A stretch of DNA of 13,179 nucleotides from positions 1 to 13,179 of IMG/VR virus record IMGVR_UViG_2698536576_000003. One strand, written 5' to 3'. A program made the translations under genes and the position numbers. Source of the stretch: a virus. Taxonomy: Duplodnaviria; Heunggongvirae; Uroviricota; Caudoviricetes. The notes beneath the pieces were generated by a model that saw nothing but the letters and a program-made list of their open reading frames with translations, was not told the origin of the DNA and searched no databases. Each line of letters begins with the position of its first letter. Positions within the stretch are counted from its first letter, which is position 1. Shown here piece by piece: positions 1 to 13,179 of this stretch.

Positions 1-14
1 TTGCAGTAATGAAA

Positions 15-839
15 TCAGGCGGTGAAAGTACCAATAAAGGTTTCTACTTTGCTGTCTTTGAATTTCTCAACAAGCAGATCACGAAATTCGTTAGCCATTT
101 CTTCCTGCACCGCTTCCAGCTGAATAATGCGCAGAACCAGTACAGGACGATCGCCAGTGATAATGCTGAGGCGTAATTTAAACGGACGTTCTTTCAGACC
201 TTCAAACGGAACGCATTTAAATTCAAATGCCACTGGCATAATGTCTTTGGTCTTCGCTTCGACAGACTCCATCAGGGAGCGTTTGCCGCTGAAGTCATTA
301 TCTTCAAAATCAGCGGTCTGGTTTGCTTCAATCGTGATTTTACGGACTGCCGCAGCCGCTTTTGTTGCTTGAATGGCGTCACCATTAGCATCAAAGCCCA
401 CAAGGTAGTCGGCCCAGTCTTCGATCCATTCTGCCAGTGACTTCTGGGAGTTACGCTCGCCGTTAACAGACAACAGAGCAGAGAACGGTGCTGTCTTTTT
501 CAGTTTGAGAGTGGCAGTGTTATCTGCGTGACCTGGCTCATCAATAGTACCCAGGTTAAGCACACTGACGGCACGCATATTATCGGCATCGATAAAGCAG
601 CGGGTGCCTTCATCTGCAAGATCTTTAGAATAACGGGTAAAATCATCGATGCTGGCAGTGGAAAGTGCACCACGGAAACGGAAGCGATTTAAATTAAATT
701 TTTCCAGATCATGAATGCGGAAATTCTCAGGCAATGCCACAGCATCGGCACCAATCTTACTGATAATTTCATTAACACCCTGAGCAGAAATAAGGGCATG
801 GATTTGATTAATTGCGGTTGCGTCTAAGTTCTGAGACAT
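15..839 (-). CDS. DUF2303-family prophage protein (YfdQ-like), 274 aa
   Basis: Complete ORF on minus strand: ATG at 839-837 with GAGGAC Shine-Dalgarno (rc of 845-850), TGA at 17-15. Length and N-terminus ([12 protein letters not shown]...) match my recollection of the CPS-53 YfdQ/DUF2303 family; no catalytic motif recognised. Confidence 0.75.
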
Positions 840-904
840 AATAAGTCCTCACTATATAAAGATATTCAGTGATGAGATAAATAATCAGTTTATTACGAAC
901 GATA

Positions 905-1267
905 TTAACGACCTGCTGCGCGGAGTTTTCCGTCAGGTTCACCGGCAAGAGTCAGTAATTGTCCCTGGTCTTCCTGCAGAATAGTCAGGCGACCACCGCG
1001 ATTGACATACATCGGCGTTTCGGTGGTGTCTTCTTCGGAAATTTTCCCGCGGTTAGTTGGGCGAACATATGAGAGTTTGTGTTTGATTTTCACACGGTTC
1101 TCATCAAACGGTTCGATTTCCAGATTGAGTGAGACCTTCCCTTTGGTTTTCGTGTTCATCACACCGGAAGCGACCTCACTGAGAACTGCGCCGATTTTGG
1201 TTTCAAATACGCCGCCGTCCAGCTCCCCGATAAATGCCTGCACATCAGTACTGCGTTCGCTAGCCAT
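905..1267 (-). CDS. hypothetical prophage protein (YfdP-like), 120 aa
   Basis: ORF track gives 905..1432, but the first ATG with a strong RBS (GAGGAG, rc of 1275-1280) is at 1267-1265 (MASERSTDVQAF...). It sits 65 bp upstream of, and co-oriented with, the YfdQ-like gene, as yfdP-yfdQ do in CPS-53. Confidence 0.7.
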   Translation of the reverse strand: MASERSTDVQAFIGELDGGVFETKIGAVLSEVASGVMNTKTKGKVSLNLEIEPFDENRVKIKHKLSYVRPTNRGKISEEDTTETPMYVNRGGRLTILQEDQGQLLTLAGEPDGKLRAAGR

Positions 1268-1677
1268 TTTGCTGCTCCTCATCATATCGACCCTGCAAGG
1301 TCGGTTGGTTTCTCCACAAAACAGAGAAGAACACCTGCGGTGGCAGCCGCCCGGATGGATTGGGTTATGAGCCCGTCGTCCGGTGATGCTCTTCTCTGTT
1401 TTGCAAAAAAGGACGGTACCAGCCGGAAGCAAGGGTACAAACTGGTACCGCCAGGACTACACACAGCATAAAGTTGTGGTGCCGGGTGCCTCCCGGTGCC
1501 TGGCGAAGGTTGCACACCAGGCGGGTGGGTATCCACAGAAGGTCGACTGTCAGCCTCAACCTTAACCCGCGTGCGCTGAGCCGCATTCACCACAACGCTA
1601 AGGATTCTCTCTGGTTGAAAATACTTAGCTGTTATGTGCCTGCTTTTAGCCACATCAGGCGAGGTGGACCTGGTTAT

Positions 1678-1723
1678 TCCCCAACAACAAGGATTCGGTT
1701 AATCTGGATATCCCCAACAACAA
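1678..1723 (+). promoter_or_regulatory. two perfect 13-bp direct repeats TCCCCAACAACAA (1678-1690 and 1711-1723), 33 bp centre to centre, upstream of the zinc-ribbon gene
   Basis: Exact 13/13 direct repeat seen in the sequence; 3-helical-turn spacing and position 38 bp upstream of the 1762 ATG suggest a protein-binding or leader element. Function is inference. Confidence 0.3.
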
Positions 1724-1761
1724 TAAGAGTATTCAATGTGATCGCTGAATTAACGGCAGCA

Positions 1762-2253
1762 ATGACGGCTATTTGTGAAACAGCCCAGATTGCAAAACTA
1801 ATGAACGAGGCAAAAACTCAAGCTGAAGTAAATGCGGCTATTGGTGAGCTGAACTCAAAGCTTGCGTCTATTCAGCGCGAATGCGTGTCTCTCGTTGAAC
1901 TGGTGGGCTCTTATCAAGAAATAAATGCTTCTCTCAAAGCTAAAATTGCAGAATTCGAAAACTTTGAGGCTCAGACGGAAGGCTATATCCTTAACCAACT
2001 TGAGTCGGGTACTTTTGTATACTCGAAGGAGGTAATCGTGAACGGTGGCAGCATAACCATGCATCTTTGCCCAAAATGTTTTGGACAAAAGATAGTATCG
2101 ATACTTCAACCATTCCCGGTTAGCGAAGATGAGCTTTTTCATAAAAGCAGGTGCCTCCACTGTGAAAATAAGTTTCTGATGAATAAAAATCCGGATTACG
2201 TATCGCCTCCATCCATTGAGGAGTTGTCCAGAAAACTTAACGGCAATCTGTAG
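1762..2253 (+). CDS. hypothetical protein, N-terminal coiled-coil and C-terminal CxxC-(x25)-CxxC zinc-ribbon, ~163 aa
   Basis: Frame is open from 1474 (TTG) to TAG at 2251-2253; the first ATG is 1762 (alternative GTG 1738), after the GC-rich region ends. The N-terminal half is heptad-like (AKLMNEAKTQAEVNAAIGELNSKLASIQ...); the C-terminal half has CPKC and CLHC. It occupies the nin/Q-proximal slot upstream of quuD. No family recognised. Confidence 0.6.
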   Translation: MTAICETAQIAKLMNEAKTQAEVNAAIGELNSKLASIQRECVSLVELVGSYQEINASLKAKIAEFENFEAQTEGYILNQLESGTFVYSKEVIVNGGSITMHLCPKCFGQKIVSILQPFPVSEDELFHKSRCLHCENKFLMNKNPDYVSPPSIEELSRKLNGNL

Positions 2254-2378
2254 ATTACTACTGTTGTGGATACCGTGGCATTTGAAGAGAAGTATGGCTC
2301 CCAGCTGGAGCTGATATTTCGTTTTATCGATCGCGCACTGGCGATTGGTGTGCTGGCCTGATTTTGTGGAGAAAGTTA

Positions 2379-2762
2379 ATGCGTGATATTCAGATGGTTC
2401 TTGAACGTTGGGGAGCGTGGGCGGCTAATAATCATGAAGATGTGACCTGGTCGTCCATTGCCGCCGGTTTTAAGGGATTAATTCCTTCAAAAGTAAAATC
2501 TCGCCCGCAATGTTGTGACGATGACGCGATGATCATTTGCGGGTGCATGGCCCGTCTGAAAAAGAACAACAGCGATTTGCACGATTTATTAGTAGATTAT
2601 TATGTAGTCGGTATGACATTCATGTCACTGGCAGGTAAGCATTGCTGCTCTGATGGTTATATCGGGAAAAGGTTACAGAAGGCTGAGGGCATAATTGAAG
2701 GGATGTTAATGGCATTAGATATCCGGTTAGAGATGGATATCGTTGTTAATAACTCTAATTAA
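2379..2762 (+). CDS. quuD: late-gene antitermination protein Q (phage 82/DLP12 QuuD type), 127 aa
   Basis: ATG at 2379 with GGAGAAAG RBS; the ORF track's TTG at 2364 adds 5 residues. Sequence [24 protein letters not shown]... matches QuuD as I recall it; position immediately upstream of the lysis region. Confidence 0.85.
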
Positions 2763-2789
2763 TATGCCAATTGTTTACTGAAAGTTATT

Positions 2790-2815
2790 AAAAATGGGGC
2801 GTTGCAACGCCCCCA
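2790..2815 (-). terminator. rho-independent terminator of the nmpC/ipeX transcript
   Basis: On the minus strand, GGGGGCGTTGCAACGCCCC stem-loop (2815-2796) followed directly by ATTTTT (2795-2790). Confidence 0.6.
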
Positions 2816-2903
2816 AAAATAAAGGGTAATATATAACAGAAGGTTTATATAGTTAGAAGCAAGGTTGTGCTCCTAAAGGAAGTGGCTTGAGGGAGCCACT
2901 TAT

Positions 2904-2941
2904 ATGTTGGGGAGGCAACGCCTCCCGCAACATATCTTTTT
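2904..2941 (+). terminator. possible plus-strand intrinsic terminator downstream of quuD
   Basis: 13-bp stem with one mismatch (ATGTTGGGGAGGC / GCCTCCCGCAACAT, 4-nt loop) followed by ATCTTTTT on the plus strand; the same hairpin lies in the nmpC 3' UTR on the other strand. Confidence 0.3.
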
Positions 2942-2951
2942 CGTAATCAGA

Positions 2952-4049
2952 TTAGAACTGGTAAACCAGACCTACAGCAACGATGTCATCAGTGCTTACA
3001 CCGAGTGCTTTAGTGAAGTCATTTTTGTCAAGCAGGTTGATTTTGTAATCAACGAAAGTAGACATATTTTTGTTGAAGTAATAGGTTGCACCTACATCAA
3101 CATATTTGACTAAGTCCTGATCGCCCCATACTCCAAGATCCTTACCTTTAGATTGCAGGTAAGCAACGGACGGACGCAGACCGAAATCGAACTGATATTG
3201 TGCAACAGCTTCGAAGTTTTGAGCTTTATTAGCAACGAAGTGATCAGCAAATACAGTCATATTCTGGGTTTCAGAATAGGTAGTGGCCAGGTAAATGTTG
3301 TTAGCGTCATATTTCAGACCTGCGGCCCAAACTTCTGCATTTTTACCGGAAGCAAATACTTCAGGAAGAACTTTCCCTGCATTAACTTGAGTGTCGGTAC
3401 GATCAGATTTCGCATAAGTTGCACCGATACCGAATCCTTCGTATTCATAGGTAGCAGAGAAACCGAAGCCATCACCGTTACCTTCGGTGTAGTTATCGAA
3501 ATCGCTACGATCGTTTTTGCCTTGGTACTGAGCAGCAAAGTTCAGACCATCAACCAGACCAAAGAAGTCGTTGTTACGATAGGTTGCAACACCAGTGGTG
3601 CGACCAGTCATGAACACATCTGTTTGGGTCCAGGTATCGCCACCGAATTCTGGCAGAACGTCAGTCCACGCACCGATGTCGTATGCTACACCGTAGTTAC
3701 GGCCGTAATCGATTGAGCCGTAGTCACCGAATTTCAGGCCTGCAAATGCAAGACGGGTTTTGTCTTTGGAGGAACCTTGAGATTCAGCGCGGTTGCCTTT
3801 GAATTCATATTCCCACTGACCGAAACCAGTCAGCTGATCGTTGATTTGGGTTTCGCCTTTGAAGCCCAGACGAACATAAGTAGTATCACCATCATCTGCA
3901 TCGTTAGAGGAAAAGTAGTGCTTGGCATTAACTTTCCCGTACAGATCCAGCTTGTTACTGTCTTTATTATAAATTTCAGCTGCCTGAGCAGACATCGCCA
4001 TCAGTACTGATGCAGCTACAGCAGAAATTGCCACTGTTAATTTTTTCAT
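2952..4049 (-). CDS. nmpC: outer membrane porin NmpC (OmpD/OmpC family), 365 aa, apparently intact
   Basis: Full-length ORF: ATG at 4049-4047, TAA at 2954-2952. Signal peptide [23 protein letters not shown], beta-barrel porin composition, C-terminal ...GLVYQF. Sits between Q and the holin, opposite to the late operon (moron). Confidence 0.9.
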
Positions 4050-4378
4050 CGTGAGCCCTTTTTTTTGAACTATTATTAAAAAATGATGTCACTGCGCGAT
4101 AAATATTCATCTAATCAATGTGATTATTTCAAGATGTAAGTTTTAGTTTCTCATTTAATTTGTGAAGTAGATCTCTATTTTTATCTGAACTTTTTCTATC
4201 GAAACCTATTTATGGCTCTTATTTGAACAAAAATAAATCTATTAGCTAATTTATATTAATGGCTGTTATTTATGGTGGTTCTATAATTCGTCTGTTTAAT
4301 TTAAACCGGCTAAAAATAACACTGGAAATTATTTATTGGTTATTTGTTGAGGTTTTCTTATGTATTTGTGGTGATGTT

Positions 4379-4407
4379 TTGAACACTCGGTAGCATTCTC
4401 ATAAATA
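4379..4407 (+). promoter_or_regulatory. candidate late promoter (pR'-like) upstream of the lysis cassette
   Basis: TTGAAC (4379-4384), 16-bp spacer, ATAAAT (4401-4406); perfect 12-bp palindrome TTACGTACGTAA at 4420-4431 just downstream. Lies ~230 bp upstream of essD. Inference from sigma70 consensus only. Confidence 0.3.
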
Positions 4408-4526
4408 TCATTCAGTGGTTTACGTACGTAAAAAATTGGTTATGCTGTTAAGAGTGGTTACTTCGTCACACAGCTTAAACCCGCCGTCGAGCTGGTTTTT
4501 CCATTTTTTGAGTCTCGATATTAGCT

Positions 4527-4585
4527 GATAACTCAATACCTGAGTTATTCACTGACTCGGAGTCAGTTACGTTTCTGCTTTTTTG
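4527..4585 (+). terminator. tandem hairpins plus T-run upstream of essD (tR'-like terminator candidate)
   Basis: Hairpin 1 GATAACTCA..TGAGTTATT (4528-4549); hairpin 2 perfect palindrome ACTGACTC-G-GAGTCAGT (4551-4567); T-run CTTTTTT at 4579-4585. Layout resembles lambdoid pR' - short RNA - tR', where Q acts. The gap between stem and T-run is atypical. Confidence 0.3.
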
Positions 4586-4637
4586 CGATACGTTGTATTC
4601 CCTCAATTTACACCCGCTTTGTCTGCGAGGTGGGGTT

Positions 4638-4853
4638 ATGAAATTCATGGATAAGTTAACAACTGGAGTCGCCTATGGCACCTCAGCAGGTAGTGCCGGT
4701 TACTGGTTTTTACAGCTGCTCGATAAAGTCACTCCCTCACAGTGGGCAGCAATAGGTGTGCTGGGTAGCCTGGTATTTGGCCTGCTGACGTACCTGACAA
4801 ACCTTTATTTCAAGATTAAAGAAGATAAGCGCAAGGCTGCGAGAGGTGAATAA
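4638..4853 (+). CDS. essD: phage-21-type class II holin (pinholin, S21-like), 71 aa, dual-start motif
   Basis: ATG at 4638 with GAGGTG RBS and a second ATG at 4647 (MKFMDK dual start). Two predicted TM segments ([18 protein letters not shown]; [22 protein letters not shown]), basic C-terminus. TAA overlaps the next gene's ATG. ORF track start 4593 is an upstream extension. Confidence 0.9.
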
Positions 4854-5350
4854 TGCCTCCATCATTACGAAAAGCCGTTGCTGCTGCTATTGGTGGCGGA
4901 GCAATTGCTATAGCATCAGTGTTAATCACTGGCCCAAGTGGTAACGATGGTCTGGAAGGTGTCAGCTACATACCATACAAAGATATTGTTGGTGTATGGA
5001 CTGTATGTCACGGACACACCGGAAAAGACATCATGCTCGGTAAAACGTATACCAAAGCAGAATGCAAAGCACTCTTGAATAAAGACCTTGCCACTGTCGC
5101 CAGACAAATTAACCCGTATATCAAAGTCGATATACCGGAAACAACGCGCGGCGCTCTTTACTCATTCGTTTACAATGTGGGTGCTGGCAATTTTAGAACA
5201 TCGACGCTTCTTCGCAAAATAAACCAGGGCGATATCAAAGGCGCATGTGATCAGCTGCGTCGCTGGACATACGCTGGCGGTAAGCAATGGAAAGGCCTGA
5301 TGACTCGTCGTGAGATTGAGCGTGAAGTCTGTTTGTGGGGGCAACAGTGA
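4853..5350 (+). CDS. rrrD: SAR (signal-arrest-release) endolysin, T4-lysozyme-like muramidase, 165 aa
   Basis: N-terminal Gly/Ala-rich weakly hydrophobic segment ([20 protein letters not shown]) typical of SAR domains; Glu-x8-Asp-x5-Thr catalytic spacing ([17 protein letters not shown]). Start overlaps holin stop (TAATG). Confidence 0.9.
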
Positions 5351-5808
5351 GCAGAGTAACCGCGATTATATCCGCTCTGATTATCTGCATCATCGTCAGC
5401 CTGTCATGGGCGGTCAATCATTACCGTGATAACGCAATCGCCTACAAAGCCCAGCGCGACAAAAATGCCAGAGAACTGAAGCTAGCGAACGCGGCAATTA
5501 CTGACATGCAGATGCGTCAGCGTGATGTTGCTGCGCTCGATGCAAAATACACGAAGGAGTTAGCTGATGCGAAAGCTGAAAATGATGCTCTGCGTGATGA
5601 TGTTGCCGCTGGTCGTCGTCGGTTGCACATCAAAGCAGTCTGTCAGTCAGTGCGTGAAGCCACCACGGCCTCCGGCGTGGATAATGCAGCCTCCCCCCGA
5701 CTGGCAGACACCGCTGAACGGGATTATTTCACCCTCAGAGAGAGGCTGATCACTATGCAAAAACAACTGGAAGGAACCCAGAAGTATATTAATGAGCAGT
5801 GCAGATAG
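5347..5808 (+). CDS. rzpD: spanin inner-membrane subunit Rz (i-spanin), 153 aa
   Basis: GTG at 5347 overlapping the endolysin TGA (5348-5350) gives [26 protein letters not shown]..., the lambda Rz-like N-terminus with TM segment then coiled-coil. The ORF track's 5335 start adds 4 residues. Confidence 0.85.
5567..5749 (+). CDS. rzoD: spanin outer-membrane lipoprotein subunit Rz1 (o-spanin), 60 aa, embedded in the +1 frame of rzpD
   Basis: ATG at 5567 preceded by AAGGAG (5553-5558); lipobox LVVVGC; proline-rich mature region ([16 protein letters not shown]). Entirely inside the Rz ORF in another frame. Confidence 0.85.
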
Positions 5809-5839
5809 AGCTGACCATATCGATGGGCAACTCATGCAA

Positions 5840-6133
5840 TTATTTTGAGCAATACACACGCGCTTCCAGCGGAGTATAAATGCCTAAAGTAATAAAACCG
5901 AGCAATCCATTTACGAATGTTTGCTGGGTTTCTGTTTTAACAACATTTTCTGCGCCGCCACAAATTTTGGCTGCATCGACAGTTTTCTTCTGCCCAATTC
6001 CAGAAACGAAGAAATGATGGGTGATGGTTTCCTTTGGTGCTACTGCTGTCTGTTTGTTTTGAACAGTAAACGTCTGTTGAGCACATCCTGTAATAAGCAG
6101 GGCCAGCGCAGTAGCGAGTAGCATTTTTTTCAT
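5840..6133 (-). CDS. borD: Bor lipoprotein (serum-resistance protein family), 97 aa
   Basis: ATG at 6133-6131; lipoprotein signal MKKMLLATALALLITGC; ends ...ARVYCSK as lambda Bor does (recalled); convergent with Rz as in lambda/DLP12. Confidence 0.9.
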   Translation of the reverse strand: MKKMLLATALALLITGCAQQTFTVQNKQTAVAPKETITHHFFVSGIGQKKTVDAAKICGGAENVVKTETQQTFVNGLLGFITLGIYTPLEARVYCSK

Positions 6134-6423
6134 GGTGTTATTCCCGATGCTTTTTGAAGTTCGCAGAATCGTATGTGTAGAAAATTAAACAAACCCTAAA
6201 CAATGAGTTGAAATTTCATATTGTTAATATTTATTAATGTATGTCAGGTGCGATGAATCGTCATTGTATTCCCGGATTAACTATGTCCACAGCCCTGACG
6301 GGGAACTTCTCTGCGGGAGTGTCCGGGAATAATTAAAAACGATGCACACAGGGTTTAGCGCGTACACGTATTGCATTATGCCAACGCCCCGGTGCTGACA
6401 CGGAAGAAACCGGACGTTATGAT

Positions 6424-6834
6424 TTAGCGTGGAAAGATTTGTGTAGTGTTCTGAATGCTCTCAGTAAATAGTAATGAATTATCAAAGGTATAGTAATATC
6501 TTTTATGTTCGTGGATATTTGTAACCCATCGGAAAACTCCTGCTTTAGCAAGATTTTCCCTGTATTGCTGAAATGTGATTTCTCTTGATTTCAACCTATC
6601 AAAGGACGTTTCTATAAGATGCGTATTTCTTGAGAATTTAACATTTACAACCTTTTTAAGTCCTTTTATTAACACAGTGTTATCGTTTTCTAACACAATG
6701 TGAATATTATCTGTGGCTAGATAGTAAATATAATGTGAGACATTGTGACGTTTTAGTTCAGAATAAAACAATTCACAGTTTAAATCTTTTCGCACTTGAT
6801 CGAATATTTCTTTAAAAATGGCAACCTGAGCCAT
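6424..6834 (-). CDS. ybcV: DUF1398-family protein YbcV-like, 136 aa
   Basis: ORF open to 6957 (177 aa), but the ATG at 6834-6832 has a GGAAGG RBS about 10 nt upstream and gives the 136-aa length I recall for YbcV ([18 protein letters not shown]...). Alternative starts at 6870 and 6957 cannot be excluded. Confidence 0.7.
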
Positions 6835-7119
6835 TGGTAAAACCTTCCATGTGATACGAGGGCGCGTAGTTTGCATTATCGTTTTTATCGTTTCAATCTG
6901 GTCTGACCTCTTTGTGTTTTGTTGATGATTTATGTCAAATATTAGGAATGTTTTCAATTAATAGTATTGGTTGTGTAACAAAGTGCGGTCCTGCTGGCAT
7001 TCTGGAGGGAAATACAACCGACAGATGTATGTAAGGCCAACGTGCTCAAATCTTCATACAGAAAGATTTGAAGTAATATTTTAACCGCTAGATGAAGAGC
7101 AAGCGCATGGAGCGACAAA

Positions 7120-7326
7120 ATGAATAAAGAACAATCTGCTGATGATCCCTCCGTGGATCTGATTCGTGTAAAAAATATGCTTAATAGCACCATTTCTATG
7201 AGTTACCCTGATGTTGTAATTGCATGTATAGAACATAAGGTGTCTCTGGAAGCATTCAGGGCAATTGAGGCAGCGTTGGTGAAGCACGATAATAATATGA
7301 AGGATTATTCCCTGGTGGTTGACTGA
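7120..7326 (+). CDS. ybcW: small prophage protein YbcW-like, 68 aa
   Basis: ATG at 7120, TGA at 7324-7326; divergent from ybcV; matches the lambda/DLP12 right-end gene order. Confidence 0.7.
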
Positions 7327-7490
7327 TCACCATAACTGCTAATCATTCAAACTACTTAACCTGTGACAGAGCCAACACGCAGTCTGTCACTGTCAGGAAA
7401 GTGGTAAAACTGCAACTCAATTACTGCAATGCCCTCGTAATTAAGTGAATTTACAATATCGTCCTGTTCGGAGGGAAGAACGCGGGATGT

Positions 7491-7685
7491 TCATTCTTCA
7501 TCACTTTTAATTGATGTATATGCTCTCTTTTCTGACGTTAGCCTCCGACGGCAGGCTTCAATGACCCAGGCTGAGAAATTCCCGGACCCTTTTTGATCAA
7601 GAGCGATGTTAATTTGTTCAATCATTTGGTTAGGAAAGCGGATGTTGCGGGTTGTTGTTCTGCGGGTTCTGTTCTTCGTTGACAT
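7491..7685 (-). CDS. ylcI: YlcI-like small protein (DUF3950), probable ribbon-helix-helix DNA-binding fold, 64 aa
   Basis: ATG at 7685-7683; Arg-rich N-terminus, then an RHH-like pattern (RNIRFPNQMIEQINIALDQKG...SAWVIEACRRRL). Directly left of the cos site. Confidence 0.7.
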   Translation of the reverse strand: MSTKNRTRRTTTRNIRFPNQMIEQINIALDQKGSGNFSAWVIEACRRRLTSEKRAYTSIKSDEE

Positions 7686-7849
7686 GAGGTTGCCCCGTAT
7701 TCAGTGTCGCTGATTTGTATTGTCTGAAGTTGTTTTTACGTTAAGTTGATGCGGATCAATTAATACGATACCTGCGTCATAATTGATTATTTGACGTGGT
7801 TTGATGGCGTAGATGCACGTTGTGACATGTAGATGATAATTATTATCAT

Positions 7850-8060
7850 TTTGCGGGTCCTTTCCGGCGATCCGACAGGTTACGGGGCGGCGACCTCGCG
7901 GGTTTTCGCTATTTATGAAAATTTTCCGGTTTAAGGCGTTTCCGTTCTTCTTCGTCATAACTTAATGTTTTTATTTAAAATACCCTCTGAAAAGAAAGGA
8001 AACGACAGGTGCTGAAAACGGGCTTTTTGGCCACTGTCGTTTCCTTTCTCTGTTTTTGTC
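7850..8060 (+). other. cos: lambda-type cos site (cosQ - cosN - cosB); cosN 12-nt cohesive-end sequence GGGCGGCGACCT at 7885-7896
   Basis: Exact lambda left-end sequence GGGCGGCGACCTCGCGGGTTTTCGCTATTTATGAAAATTTTCCGG... begins at 7885, preceded by ...ACAGGTTACG, and is followed by the cosB region leading into the Nu1 start at 8074. Confidence 0.9.
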
Positions 8061-8073
8061 CGTGGAATGAACA

Positions 8074-8593
8074 ATGGAAGTCAACAAAAAGCAGCTGGCT
8101 GAAATTTTCGGCGCGAGTATCCGTACCATTCAGAACTGGCAGGAGCAGGGAATGCCCGTTCTGCGAGGCGGTGGGAAGGGTAATGAGGTGCTTTATGACT
8201 CTGCCGCCGTCATAAAATGGTATGCCGAAAGGGATGCTGAAATTGAGAACGAAAAGCTGCGCCGGGAGGTTGAAGAACTGCGACAGGCCAGCGAGACAGA
8301 TCTCCAGCCAGGGACTATTGAGTACGAACGCCATCGACTTACGCGTGCGCAGGCCGACGCACAGGAGCTGAAAAATGCCAGAGACTCCGCTGAAGTGGTG
8401 GAAACCGCATTCTGTACTTTCGTGCTGTCGCGGATCGCAGGTGAAATTGCCAGTATTCTCGACGGGATCCCCCTGTCGGTGCAGCGGCGTTTTCCGGAAC
8501 TGGAAAACCGACATGTTGATTTCCTGAAACGGGATATCATCAAAGCCATGAACAAAGCAGCCGCGCTGGATGAACTGATACCGGGGTTGCTGA

Positions 8594-8619
<26 letters not shown>
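8074..8619 (+). CDS. nohD: terminase small subunit Nu1, 181 aa
   Basis: MEVNKKQLAEIFGASIRTIQNWQEQGMPVLRGGGKGNEVLYDSAAVIKWY... is essentially lambda gpNu1 (winged-helix N-terminus); 26-nt overlap with the A start, as in lambda. Confidence 0.93.
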
Positions 8620-11078
<2,459 letters not shown>

Positions 11079-11178
11079 AAACAGCCTATGACAATGCCGA
11101 GAAACGTCTGCAGAAAGATCAGAACGGTGCGGATATCCCTGGCAAAGACACCTTTACGAAAAATATTGGTGCCTGGCC

Positions 11179-11706
11179 GGAACTAATGAATTTATTGGTG
11201 AAGGTGATGCATATATTCCGCCTCATACAGGTCTGCCAGCAAACAGTACCGATATTGCACCACCAGATATTCCTGCTGGCTTTGTGGCTGTTTTCAACAG
11301 TGATGAGGCATCGTGGCATCTCGTTGAAGATCATCGGGGTAAAACGGTTTATGACGTGGCTTCCGGCGACGCGTTATTTATTTCTGAACTCGGCTCATTA
11401 CCGGAAAATGTCACCTGGTTATCCCCGGAAGGGGAGTTTCAGAAGTGGAACGGCACAGCTTGGGTGAAGGATACGGAAGCAGAAAAACTGTTCCGGATCC
11501 GTGAGGCGGAAGAAACAAAAAACAGCCTGATGCAGGTAGCCAGTGAGCATATAGCGCCGCTTCAGGATGCTGTGGATCTGGAGATCGCAACGGAGGAAGA
11601 AACCTTGTTGCTGGAAGCCTGGAAAAAGTATCGGGTGTTGCTGAACCGTGTTGATACATCAACTGCACCTGATATTGAGTGGCCTACGAACCCTGTCAGG
11701 GAGTAA
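11179..11706 (+). pseudogene. tfaD: tail fibre assembly protein Tfa remnant (lacks first ~16 codons and start codon)
   Basis: Frame reads [60 protein letters not shown]...[22 protein letters not shown], matching lambda Tfa from about residue 17 to the C-terminus. Upstream in this frame there is no ATG; the first in-frame start is GTG at 11284 (ORF track, 140 aa). Confidence 0.75.
11543..11660 (+). repeat. direct repeat copy 1: tfa 3'-end segment (~118 bp)
   Basis: AGTGAGCATATAGCGCCGCTTCAGGATGCTGTGGATCTGGAGATCGCAACGGAGGAAGAAACC... aligns by eye at roughly 80-85% identity with 12591-12710, same orientation. Confidence 0.75.
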
Positions 11707-11760
11707 TCATTGGGATTATGCCGCAGCACGTCTTAAGCAAGAACGTGCTGCGGTTGGATG

Positions 11761-12429
11761 CTATTTTTTCCCTGAAGCGGAAAACATTACTACAGTACCT
11801 TGAACCTTGGTTTTAACATTCTCGAAATGCTCTGAGAGTATATGTGTTAAGCCTTCTTCGGAATCTTTTGTGTTTGAAAAGATGCCTTTCTGATTGTAAA
11901 TGCGCATCAGTTTTTGACCGAAGCTATTGTGCACAACTCCATCGCCAAGAATTGTGGCTCCGTATAGAGTTCCATCGTCAGTTAAGGCCTGCGCCGCATT
12001 GCGTATTACACAGCTTTTTGTAGATATATTTCCAGGCAGGCAGTGAAGAAGGTAAAACATGGAAATGGAATCAAATTGACCATGTAACGCCGCGGGATAA
12101 GGTTCAAAAACATCATGGCTAATTTTATGTTTAATTTTTGATTCCCCAGCCCTTGTAGATGCCGCGTTCAGGCTAGCTTCGTTCAAATCCATTAAAGATA
12201 TCAGACTACTCTCAGGTACGTGAGTAAGGTAAAACCCAGTTCCAACACCAATATCCAGATGGTTGTTACCTAAATGTTCCAGAAAGTGTGGAAGAAGGTG
12301 TTCCTTTGTAGGACATCCCCATGCAAGCCGATTTGATACTCCCAAAACCCACCAGTCATAAAGCTTTAGGGTAAGTGGTGTGTAAATTTTAGCCCCATCA
12401 TCTGTGTTTTTTTTCATTAATTTCACCAT
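11761..12429 (-). CDS. ybcY: class I SAM-dependent methyltransferase (YbcY-like), 218-222 aa
   Basis: Minus-strand ORF with SAM-binding motif I HLDIGVGTGFY. The first ATG (12429) lacks an RBS; the ATG at 12417 (MKKNTDDG...) has GGTGAAA 5 nt upstream, so the true start is probably 12417. Antisense to the flanking tfa-derived sequences. Confidence 0.8.
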   Translation of the reverse strand: MVKLMKKNTDDGAKIYTPLTLKLYDWWVLGVSNRLAWGCPTKEHLLPHFLEHLGNNHLDIGVGTGFYLTHVPESSLISLMDLNEASLNAASTRAGESKIKHKISHDVFEPYPAALHGQFDSISMFYLLHCLPGNISTKSCVIRNAAQALTDDGTLYGATILGDGVVHNSFGQKLMRIYNQKGIFSNTKDSEEGLTHILSEHFENVKTKVQGTVVMFSASGKK

Positions 12430-12485
12430 GTTATAGTTTTATTTGTGAATTAAATCAATTATGGCGATGAATTACAAGGGGTTAA

Positions 12486-12791
12486 ATGCTGCCGCAGCAT
12501 AGCGATATTGAAATAGCCTGGTATGCTTCGATACAACAGGAGCCGAATGGCTGGAAGACCGTCACCACACAGTTCTACATCCAGGAATTCAGTGAGTATA
12601 TTGCGCCACTGCAGGATGCTGTAGATCTGGAAATCGCAACGGAGGAAGAAAGATCGTTGCTGGAGGCATGGAATAAATATCGGGTATTGTTGAATCGAGT
12701 TGATACATCAGTAGCTCTGGGTATGAAGCTGTTTGTAACTCATGTTACAGTAACAGTTATTACTATCTCGAAGGTGCAAAATGTATATTGA
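12486..12791 (+). CDS. tfaX: TfaX-like protein containing a tail-fibre-assembly C-terminal segment, 101 aa
   Basis: ATG at 12486 with AAGGGG RBS; the middle of the protein ([37 protein letters not shown]) duplicates the Tfa C-terminus; the N- and C-terminal parts are unrelated. Likely a chimeric remnant, possibly expressed. Confidence 0.55.
12591..12710 (+). repeat. direct repeat copy 2: tfa 3'-end segment (~120 bp)
   Basis: AGTGAGTATATTGCGCCACTGCAGGATGCTGTAGATCTGGAAATCGCAACGGAGGAAGAAAGA... pairs with 11543-11660. Confidence 0.75.
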
Positions 12792-12881
12792 TTTGATATT
12801 TTATAAATTTACTTCGAATCTGGCACGTCAACTTTTGATTAAAGTAATATCAGTTTTCGGCGAAAAAAGGACCGTGTACAT

Positions 12882-13179
12882 GGTGATGCTGCCAACTTAC
12901 TGATTTAGTGTATGATGGTGTTTTTGAGGTGCTCCAGTGGCTTCTGTTTCTATCAGCTGTCCCTCCTGTTCAGCTACTGACGGGGTGGTGCGTAACGGCA
13001 AAAGCACCGCCGGACATCAGCGCTATCTCTGCTCTCACTGCCGTAAAACATGGCAACTGCAGTTCACTTACACCGCTTCTCAACCCGGTACGCACCAGAA
13101 AATCATTGATATGGCCATGAATGGCGTTGGATGCCGGGCAACCGCCCGCATTATGGGCGTTGGCCTCAACACGATTTTA
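12882..13179 (+). mobile_element. IS1 insertion sequence, left end (continues beyond the window)
   Basis: Starts with the IS1 terminal inverted repeat GGTGATGCTGCCAACTTACTGATTTAGTGTATGATGGTG at 12882 and matches IS1 through to the window end. Confidence 0.92.
12937..13179 (+). CDS. insA: IS1 InsA (transposition repressor), N-terminal 81 codons, truncated by the window edge
   Basis: GTG at 12937 gives (M)[80 protein letters not shown]. Absent from the ORF track because there is no stop inside the window; the track's 12908..13120 ORF is a different, spurious frame. Confidence 0.88.

Follow-up and report, generated by a model that had tools for sequence, protein, structure and literature searches.

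Phage early transcripts carry RNase III hairpins, as in the lambda N leader and at the early intercistronic sites of T7. In the operator of the thrS mRNA, a leader hairpin mimics the anticodon arm of tRNA-Thr and is bound by ThrRS. The put RNAs of phage HK022 consist of two stem-loops and span about 70 nt (PMC9378689). RNase III, RNase E, and termination all contribute to the production of DicF from the dicBp transcript (bioRxiv 10.1101/2023.04.14.536235). STnc100 copies of the group that we call subfamily A below are transcribed in EDL933, where one was confirmed by Northern blot (PMC5331693), and a predicted STnc100 copy overlaps in part with EcOnc27, a small RNA bound by Hfq (PMC12711010). 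PasD, found by Hfq RIL-seq, is related to STnc100, and Zhu, Shabalina, and Storz (2026) treat the two as diverged relatives with different seeds (bioRxiv 10.64898/2026.05.13.724894).

Here we analyze a window of 13,179 nt (positions 1 to 13,179 of IMG/VR virus record IMGVR_UViG_2698536576_000003) and within it the region at 1268-1761. A first-pass annotation, made from the sequence alone, had described this region as GC-rich, repeat-dense noncoding DNA that might be a structured RNA gene, a regulatory or recombination site, a degraded gene, or the scar of a rearrangement; it named no strand, and the string of separate modules described below was not seen by that earlier reader. Our reading, to which we assign a probability of about 0.6, is that the region would encode a DicF-type small RNA embedded in an early-left operon and built on an STnc100-type scaffold, followed by a hairpin that would control processing or translation. 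Nearly all of the repeats are helices of an RNA read from the minus strand, in the same direction as yfdP.

RESULTS

Position within the early-left operon of a defective lambdoid prophage

The window is a defective lambdoid prophage of Escherichia coli. Positions 1 to 2272 are colinear with the active phage PhiR49_1 at 99.8% identity, and by this alignment the deletion junction that made the prophage defective is at 2272/2273, outside the region at 1268-1761. The idea that the region is itself a rearrangement scar fails on the same comparison, as the whole arrangement, including the zinc-ribbon gene, is intact in PhiR49_1. On the minus strand, yfdP (905-1267) is the first gene after the leader and yfdQ (15-839) lies downstream of it, forming a phrog_204/phrog_210 pair that represents the distal part of an early-left arm of the SfV/CPS-53 type. 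The plus strand carries the zinc-ribbon gene (1738-2253, phrog_1244), a DUF968 fragment, quuD, and then porin and lysis genes. The zinc-ribbon gene is an insertion and is oriented antisense to the PL transcript.

PL and cI come after the zinc-ribbon gene in PhiR49_1. There PL sits just past the cI terminator and reads TTGACA-16-CATAAT, overlapped by operators of the GGTACA (cI) type, with a boxA-like sequence, GCUCUUUAACAA, downstream. From this layout we infer that transcription from PL would run antisense through the zinc-ribbon gene and into the region at 1268-1761. Placement between the repressor gene cI with PL and the first early-left gene is common to SfV, ST64B, phiES15, and PhiR49_1. 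A promoter scan of positions 1100-2400 of the window returned no promoter-like site, and expression in this particular prophage is uncertain because cI and PL have been deleted.

Gene orientation does switch at this point, as noted at first pass, but the accompanying switch in module origin does not occur, given the colinearity with PhiR49_1. The change in orientation is one of two observations in favor of a DNA-level site, used for recombination or attachment or as an origin, or else left as a scar by the rearrangement behind the defective prophage. The second comes from a unit of about 20 nt, CTGG(T/A)TAT(T)CCCCAACAACAA, present in two direct copies at 1670-1690 and 1704-1723; the 13-bp direct repeats described earlier (1678-1690 and 1711-1723) are each part of this longer unit. 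Beyond the stop codon of the zinc-ribbon gene is a copy in inverted orientation, truncated at window position 2272 and complete in PhiR49_1, and in SfIV and locus L092 different plus-strand genes start right beside the repeat. The inverted partner and the abutting inserts of other phages suggest that this sub-part may be an insertion boundary, in which case 1670-1723 may mark the edge of an inserted gene and be the only portion of the region acting at the DNA level. As an account of the repeats as a whole, however, a DNA-level site is highly improbable: the region is colinear with PhiR49_1 through 2272, and the inverted repeats between 1317 and 1596 vary by compensation and by G-U pairing, which is relevant only in RNA. 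The repeats also do not match cI operators; we considered the 13-bp copies for that role and rejected them, the OR operators of PhiR49_1 and SfV reading TGTACC..GGTACA.

Absence of a conserved reading frame

Base composition across 1201-1600 is 0.55-0.585 G+C versus 0.37-0.50 in the flanks, a rise that is real but modest. The overlapping open frames are as reported, at 1282..1653 and 1365..1586 on the minus strand and at 1383..1565 and 1474..2253 on the plus strand. None of the ORFs of the 1268-1761 region matches a Pfam family, and among relatives that are 97-98% identical, 1-nt indels alter which frames are open and how long they are, in agreement with the initial judgment that this is not a real coding sequence. 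The alternative then offered, a degraded gene, receives its support from annotation: PGAP places a frameshifted hypothetical protein at 1282-1593, directly over the RNA described below, and hypothetical proteins are annotated over the element in the records of SfIV, mEp460, and PhiR49_1. That several frames are open adds to this view. We nevertheless consider a decayed protein-coding gene extremely improbable, given the lack of Pfam matches, frames whose position and length shift among near-identical sequences, records of SfV and ST64B in which nothing is annotated here, and substitutions within helices that are compensatory and commonly produce G-U pairs. By these comparisons, the region reads as RNA in which no reading frame is conserved.

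The segment occurs in phages SfV, SfIV, SfII, and ST64B (77% identity in ST64B). Many E. coli genomes carry the 1268-1761 region at 100% identity, and the segment, or at least part of it, is present in 3,008 of 5,426 complete ones.

A pseudoknotted domain related to STnc100 and PasD

A permissive scan against Rfam gave one meaningful match, to STnc100 (RF02076), which was full length (1626→1403) and confined to the minus strand. Its score of 40.3 bits (E = 2e-7) is below the gathering score of 47. We scanned viral contigs for a 20-nt core, ACCGGGAGGCACCCGGCACC, which returned 120 stretches and 125 distinct variants, the latter falling into 32 sequence clusters, and we built a covariance model of our own, R1, from 45 diverse representatives. 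R1 finds 127 copies of the domain in the collected loci and scores the window copy at 81.3 bits. The domain occupies 126 nt at 1472..1597 on the minus strand, and we place it in subfamily B (defined below) of an STnc100/PasD superfamily. The window element is an STnc100-superfamily relative that is unannotated at this locus.

All variants share one architecture, comprising a closing helix P1 that carries GGUGAAU, a hairpin P2 whose loop is UNNGCG, a center that varies, a P4 hairpin, and P5, which reads CCGGG-AGGCA-CCCGG and is fused directly to the 3' strand of helix P1. In the window, helix P1 pairs 1596-1588 with 1481-1473, P2 pairs 1584-1580 with 1574-1569, P4 pairs 1522-1515 with 1505-1498, and P5 pairs 1496-1492 with 1486-1482, so that the core STnc100 arrangement of a GGUGAAU closing helix, P2, and a P5 abutting helix P1 is present. 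The GGTGCC/CCAGGC-type repeats seen at first pass are found at 1482-1525 and resolve into the arms of P4 and P5, with a 10-nt tandem (1482-1501) in addition. In the R1 alignment, 89.8% of cells are paired, versus 76.0% in shuffled alignments and at most 51% when partners are slid, and 19 of 25 pairs have changed on both sides; these values were reached in 0 of 500 shuffles. Covariation is supported in four helices, P1, P2, P4, and P5 (0/500 shuffles). The P5 stem varies (CCGGG/CCCGG, GGUGG/CCACC, CCUGG/CCAGG) while its AGGCA loop is fixed. Because the frequent G-U pairs work only on the minus strand, the RNA is read from that strand.

A further helix, P3, forms a pseudoknot between the strand following P2 and the loop of P4, with AAGGUUG (1563-1557) pairing with CAACCUU (1512-1506) in the window. 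Compensatory variants elsewhere in the family include AAGGCUG/CAGCCUU, CCAGUC/GACUGG, CUGGUGU/ACACCGG, AGACUGACA/UGUCAGUCU, and ACUGGAUA/UAUCCAGU. A column-based count gave 62.8% of cells paired versus 66.2% when slid by one column, the register of the loop differing between subfamilies. We also used a register-independent test, in which each P4 loop was scored against the 5' segment of every RNA among 40 non-redundant RNAs. The loop's own segment fell at the 89th percentile on average (Wilcoxon p = 1e-10) and ranked in the top 10% for 29 of the 40 (binomial p = 8e-21). Conservation of this kind, with invariant loops joined to a pseudoknot, exceeds what a base-pairing small RNA needs and points to a protein or ligand partner; it suggests a specific binding partner for the scaffold whether the RNA acts in cis or in trans.

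Upstream of the domain on the same strand is a hairpin, GCCUG...CAGGC (1660→1638), followed by the conserved ACAUAACAG (1637→1629). The stem of this hairpin-plus-ACAYAACAG block is, by eye, GCCUG/CAGGC in SfV and phiES15 and differs elsewhere, reading GCCGGG/CCCGGC in locus L115 and GCUCC/GGAGC in phage P1. A short stem, GCUAAG...CUUAGC (1597..1629), lies directly 5' of the domain. Judging from position, it would occupy the place taken in phage P1 and locus L062 by a full copy of the hairpin that we call H, which in those two stands directly 5' of the subfamily B domain.

A conserved linker and an intrinsic terminator

The domain is followed on the minus strand by a conserved, single-stranded 13-nt linker, GCUGUGUGUAGUC (1467→1455), a candidate seed for base pairing in trans. 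The linker is conserved in SfV, phiES15, and loci L030, L023, L032, and L016, and in the last four it has been kept where the scaffold has diverged to 21-43 bits. Its predicted accessibility is intermediate (mean unpaired probability only about 0.5), and no complementary site occurs elsewhere in the window.

An intrinsic terminator comes next (1452→1405), composed of an 11-13-bp hairpin (1452→1412) and six U residues (1410→1405). The hairpin has a predicted free energy of -20.5 kcal/mol, and the 3' Rho-independent terminator that characterizes STnc100 is thus present; a simple terminator scan missed it because the loop is 19 nt. The 9-bp inverted repeat described at first pass lies within this hairpin at 1414-1422/1442-1450, its first arm one base away from the reported 1415-1423. 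The 5' arm of the terminator, UGGCGGUACCAGUUU, resembles UGGCGGUAUCAGUUU of DicF, with 14 of 15 nt identical. The Rfam DicF model (RF00039) scores 1411-1465 of the minus strand at 15.7 bits against a cut-off of 48 (E = 1.3), and the sharing with DicF is limited to this 15-nt terminator arm.

Hairpin H and the start of yfdP

The perfect 14-bp inverted repeat that had been recorded at 1317-1330/1390-1403 is present and extends to 24-nt arms that are 83% complementary. Since a perfect 14-mer inverted repeat is expected by arithmetic only about 5e-4 times in 494 bp, the repeats are not due to chance. On the minus strand, the repeat forms the outer stem of H (1403→1317), 19 bp long and enclosing two hairpins. 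The fold has a z-score of -5.35. Across 15 copies from several genera, with the structure specified by hand, 15 pairs have changed on both sides versus 6.8±1.6 in shuffled alignments (0/500 shuffles reach 15), and 86% of cells are paired versus at most 48% when partners are slid. RNAalifold missed the outer stem, the distant copies having been misaligned. Frequent U-G pairs place H, too, on the minus strand, and H matches no Rfam family. Compensatory changes of the kind that the first-pass annotation proposed to look for in homologues are therefore seen in both the STnc-type domain and H, two separate structures that bear out its option of a structured RNA gene.

Between H and yfdP lies the yfdP translation-initiation region (1265..1317), which includes the conserved GUGGAGAAACC (1317→1307); in several genera, the H of yfdP leaders is followed by GUGGAGA(A/U)AC. 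No hairpin forms at 1270-1287, where one had been reported; the small hairpin of this leader is at 1304→1287 and has a UUGCA loop. The yfdP ribosome-binding site GAGGAG (1280→1275) and the ATG (1267→1265) follow.

The tip of H, GGGCUCAUAACCC (1374→1362), matches the anticodon arm of the E. coli initiator tRNA-fMet exactly, and the match to tRNA-fMet (metZ) is limited to the 14-nt stretch CGGGCUCAUAACCC. Every variant retains the UCAU core (U at position 33, purine at 37). In 99 of the 102 phage loci with the exact tip, a T-run lies directly upstream. A yfdP homologue with 60-100% protein identity begins about 100 nt later in 73 of these 102 loci, and the remaining 29 have a different first gene downstream. 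That the tip follows a T-run and precedes varied first genes indicates that H belongs to the junction between terminator and first gene and not to yfdP.

Identity with tRNA-fMet positions 29-41 and the retention of UCAU, U33, and purine 37 in all variants raise the idea that H is a copy of the initiator-tRNA anticodon arm and that the STnc domain is a second mimic, a cloverleaf-like four-way junction in which helix P1 would stand for the acceptor arm, P2 for the D arm, P3/P4 for the anticodon arm, and P5 for the T arm. Such mimics could act as decoys or processing punctuation for tRNA-binding enzymes, for example anticodon nucleases of the VapC kind, RNase P, or MetRS, or for the P site of the 30S subunit together with IF3. 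Genomic setting offers some encouragement: a Klebsiella phage copy adjoins the genes for tRNA-Arg and tRNA-Asn, and the phage P1 copies lie within the ban operon, which is rich in tRNA genes. In loci L016 and L041, moreover, the P2 loop GCUGAU is complementary to the P5 loop AUCAGC, reminiscent of the contact between D loop and T loop. The searches argue the other way, as ARAGORN called no tRNA gene in the window, nor in any of six related loci, and RF00005, the tRNA model of Rfam, had no match at E <= 10 in 1150-1850, results that led us to reject an intact tRNA. The anticodon stem keeps only 3 bp, there is no CCA end, and the cloverleaf analogy is topological only. We consider this pair of mimics decidedly unlikely as an account of the region, and it is likewise unlikely that H as a functional mimic, with a tRNA-like STnc domain, punctuates the early operons of enterobacterial phages. 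Were it true, the mimics would be decoys for anticodon nucleases that cleave tRNA-fMet (such as VapC) or handles for tRNA-processing enzymes or the 30S P site, and the conserved scaffold, with an exchangeable 3' seed, would constitute a modular family of phage small RNAs. A kissing contact of the H tip with the linker or the ribosome-binding site was also considered and dismissed, as it is not conserved, by eye, in ST64B.

Two subfamilies and an unannotated copy in Qin

Copies of the domain fall into two subfamilies. In subfamily A, the P2 stem is CCCCC/GGGG, as in canonical STnc100, and the copies are free-standing genes, usually with their own promoter and terminator, that are arrayed in tandem at a distance from any regulated coding sequence; a promoter reading TTGACA-17-TAAATT lies just upstream of helix P1. 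In subfamily B, which includes the window copy and those of ST64B, phiES15, phage P1, SJ46, and others, the P2 stem is GCGGC/GCaCGC and the domain lies inside operons. RF02076 scores subfamily A at 57-79 bits and every subfamily B copy at 33-41 bits.

In E. coli K-12, R1 finds a subfamily B domain (65.4 bits) in the Qin prophage between dicF and dicB, ending 27 nt before the dicB start. It is unannotated and scores 34.4 bits with RF02076. The CPS-53 prophage of K-12 is without the element and shares only the last 32 nt before yfdP, so that standard K-12 data sets do not cover it. PawZ, which we considered as a CPS-53 small RNA, is in K-12 an unrelated 15-bp pseudo-tRNA remnant at the attachment site.

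The Qin copy is one of several subfamily B domains that lie 27-65 nt before a start codon without a terminator, the others preceding tciA in phage P1 and SJ46 and yfdP in Buttiauxella. A domain that abuts a coding sequence in this manner fits a cis-acting 5'-untranslated element better than a trans-acting small RNA, and a purely cis-acting leader is the main rival to our reading. Under that rival, the domain would be a sensor or operator in a 5' untranslated region, responding to a protein, a ligand, or a condition, and in concert with H and with the terminator, as an attenuator, it would gate potentially toxic early-left genes, with no small RNA acting in trans. The 27-65-nt spacing before dicB, tciA, and yfdP with no terminator between favors it, as do the invariant loops (AGGCA in P5, UNNGCG in P2) with the pseudoknot, typical of RNAs that bind a partner, and the fact that H always stands before the first downstream gene regardless of its identity. 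Against it, the domain overlaps neither a ribosome-binding site nor a terminator and no switching mechanism is visible, in the window a conserved seed and a strong terminator intervene between the domain and yfdP, and subfamily A stands free with promoter and terminator in tandem arrays far from regulated genes. On balance we regard a purely cis-acting leader as possible but doubtful.

DISCUSSION

The reading that we favor, a DicF-type small RNA carried in an early-left operon and followed by a control hairpin, treats 1761→1268 of the minus strand as the untranslated leader of an early-left (PL) operon of the SfV/PhiR49_1 lambdoid type, built of RNA modules. The first module would be an operon-embedded small RNA of about 200-225 nt that combines the 126-nt scaffold, the 13-nt seed, and the terminator. 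It would be made when PL fires after prophage induction; no promoter of its own was found. Termination would define its 3' end, or cleavage in H would do so in read-through RNA, and the production route of dicBF provides a precedent for how such a module could be generated. The RNA would use its seed to act in trans, probably together with Hfq.

The second module, H, comes directly after the U-tract and would be present in read-through transcripts alone. At 19-26 bp, its helix matches RNase III substrates in size, and RNase III may cleave it. Situated 50 nt before the yfdP start, H may separate the small RNA from the mRNA, and it may set the translation or stability of whichever gene comes first downstream.

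At least part of this segment is found in over half of complete E. coli genomes, and annotation pipelines leave it blank or call it a broken gene. Recognizing it as RNA corrects those annotations, and the STnc100/PasD family gains a sub-threshold branch that resides within early operons, as well as a pseudoknot. The unannotated domain beside DicF and upstream of dicB provides a testable link to the best-studied prophage operon, and how toxic early genes (dicB, kil, tciA) are restrained could be tested directly in K-12. The tip of H, conserved across genera more strictly than the protein gene after it, is a well-defined and cheap target for mutagenesis.

Of the systems already described, STnc100 and PasD are like the window element in their GGUGAAU closing helix, UNNGCG P2 hairpin, and CCGGG-AGGCA-CCCGG P5 fused to helix P1, in the variable tail that precedes a Rho-independent terminator, and in their lambdoid prophage habitat. 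The window copy differs from STnc100 in scoring 40.3 bits against a gathering score of 47, in having a GCGGC/GCaCGC stem in P2 and not CCCCC/GGGG, in lacking its own sigma-70 promoter, and in residing in an early-left operon leader, as opposed to a site downstream of stx2 or Q. Neither the RF02076 consensus line nor the RNAalifold model in the paper on PasD and STnc100 includes the P3 pseudoknot.

The dicBF operon offers a parallel in position. DicF, too, is a small RNA that lies ahead of the first effector gene in an early-left-type operon of a lambdoid prophage; the repressor-controlled operon in which it sits matches the position of the window element, and in Qin itself a subfamily B domain (65 bits) comes right after dicF. 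The seeds differ, however, the Rfam DicF model gives the window 15.7 bits against 48, and the order of modules is not the same: Qin has DicF, the domain, and dicB, whereas the window has the domain, the seed with its terminator, H, and yfdP.

For H, the lambda N leader and the T7 intercistronic sites provide a likeness in form, a long imperfect hairpin just upstream of the ribosome-binding site of the first gene, with no sequence similarity; of these hairpins only H has a conserved tRNA-like tip. The put RNAs of HK022 work in cis as antiterminators downstream of PL and PR. Like them, the window RNA is structured and lies after an early promoter and before terminators, and the phages concerned may be without an N-type protein. 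We rejected a put-type antiterminator, as there was no match above chance to the immunity region of HK022 (27.6-30.1 kb) and the architecture differs: the window RNA is a pseudoknotted multi-helix junction that precedes its own strong terminator and not a pair of stem-loops. The thrS operator, finally, resembles H in presenting a leader hairpin whose tip copies a tRNA anticodon arm, a likeness to be taken as a lead only, and differs from it in that no synthetase gene lies downstream of H.

Boundary of the defective prophage

In this defective prophage, comparison with the active phage PhiR49_1 puts the actual deletion junction at window 2272/2273. Homology to PhiR49_1 stops within a 20-nt repeat 3' of the zinc-ribbon gene stop codon, and the far side of the junction consists of a DUF968 fragment and quuD. 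Because the repeat on the zinc-ribbon side is joined directly to the DUF968 fragment and quuD, the prophage is left without cI, PL, cro, and replication genes.

Inverted copies of AATCTGGATATCC(C/A)CAACA lie on both sides of the zinc-ribbon gene (window 1701-1723 and 2259-2272; 4470-4492 in the PhiR49_1 locus), a member of phrog_1244, a family with no assigned function. In SfIV and in comparison locus L092, other plus-strand genes adjoin the same repeat, and from these arrangements the repeat-bounded site resembles an insertion hotspot whose genes run antisense to the PL transcript. The early-left promoter itself (TTGACA-16-CATAAT) is found in PhiR49_1 within 4464-4680, together with cI-type operators that have GGTACA half-sites. 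About 95 nt downstream of PL is a perfect rrn-type boxA, GCTCTTTAACAA, and no N-like gene is apparent in PhiR49_1.

Beyond the junction, the interval between quuD and the porin gene (window 2763-2951) contains two GC-rich hairpins: one is GGGGCGTTGCAACGCCCC, and the other, GGGAGGCAACGCCTCCC, is bordered by A/T runs. The two may be terminators of the late leader or of the porin gene. Farther along the plus strand, Rfam matches IS009 at window 11465-11663 (221.6 bits) and, about 1 kb away, a second copy at 12509-12712 (107.4 bits, below the cut-off of 117); plus-strand open reading frames of 100 to 140 amino acids cover both.

STnc100-type domains and overlying annotations

Database open reading frames overlie the RNA region at window 1282-1593, at 2616-3528 in SfIV, and at 3551-4464 in PhiR49_1. 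Such annotations include a frameshifted pseudogene called by PGAP, a yfdP with an N-terminal extension (SfIV gp34), and a 729-bp form of the zinc-ribbon gene, with its start within the RNA domain. They are probably misannotations.

Elsewhere, STnc100 genes occur in tandem arrays of three to four copies each (L111 4378-5461, L064 371-990, and L073 1724-2343). The spacing between copies is about 250 to 260 nt in L064 and L073; in L111 it is 250 to 460 nt, and an isrI match adjoins the array there. Among tandem copies the scaffolds are kept while the 3' tails vary. In diverged variants of the domain from L016 (about 2640-2760) and phage mEp460 (3174-3310), the P2 loop is GGCUGAU and the P5 loop is enlarged to AGAUCAGCA; since these loops are complementary, they suggest a candidate loop-loop contact between P2 and P5.

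The dicF–dicB interval of prophage Qin in K-12 also holds an unannotated subfamily B domain (3954-4083 in the Qin locus; NC_000913.3, about 1649453-1649582), whose 3' end lies 27 nt from the dicB ATG. It scores 65.4 bits with our covariance model, built from 45 domain representatives, versus 34.4 bits with that of Rfam, and has a CCUGG/CCAGG P5 stem and a CAGUUAA/UUAACUG P3 pairing.

H elements in other phages

Phage P1 carries H tip motifs on the minus strand at about 2855 and 2576 (locus L039, about 2400-2900), upstream of tciA and amid the P1 tRNA genes in the ban operon. The copy at 2855 is followed by more diverged GGUGAAU-type sequence, and the copy at 2576 is directly adjoined by a subfamily B domain (2532→2407). 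SJ46 looks like a recombinant retaining a single copy. An H-like element in Klebsiella phage RCIP0034 (L035 2908-2958), whose tip reads GGGCUCAUAAUCC, lies directly 3' of tRNA-Asn and tRNA-Arg; being downstream of Q, it belongs to the late operon rather than an early one.
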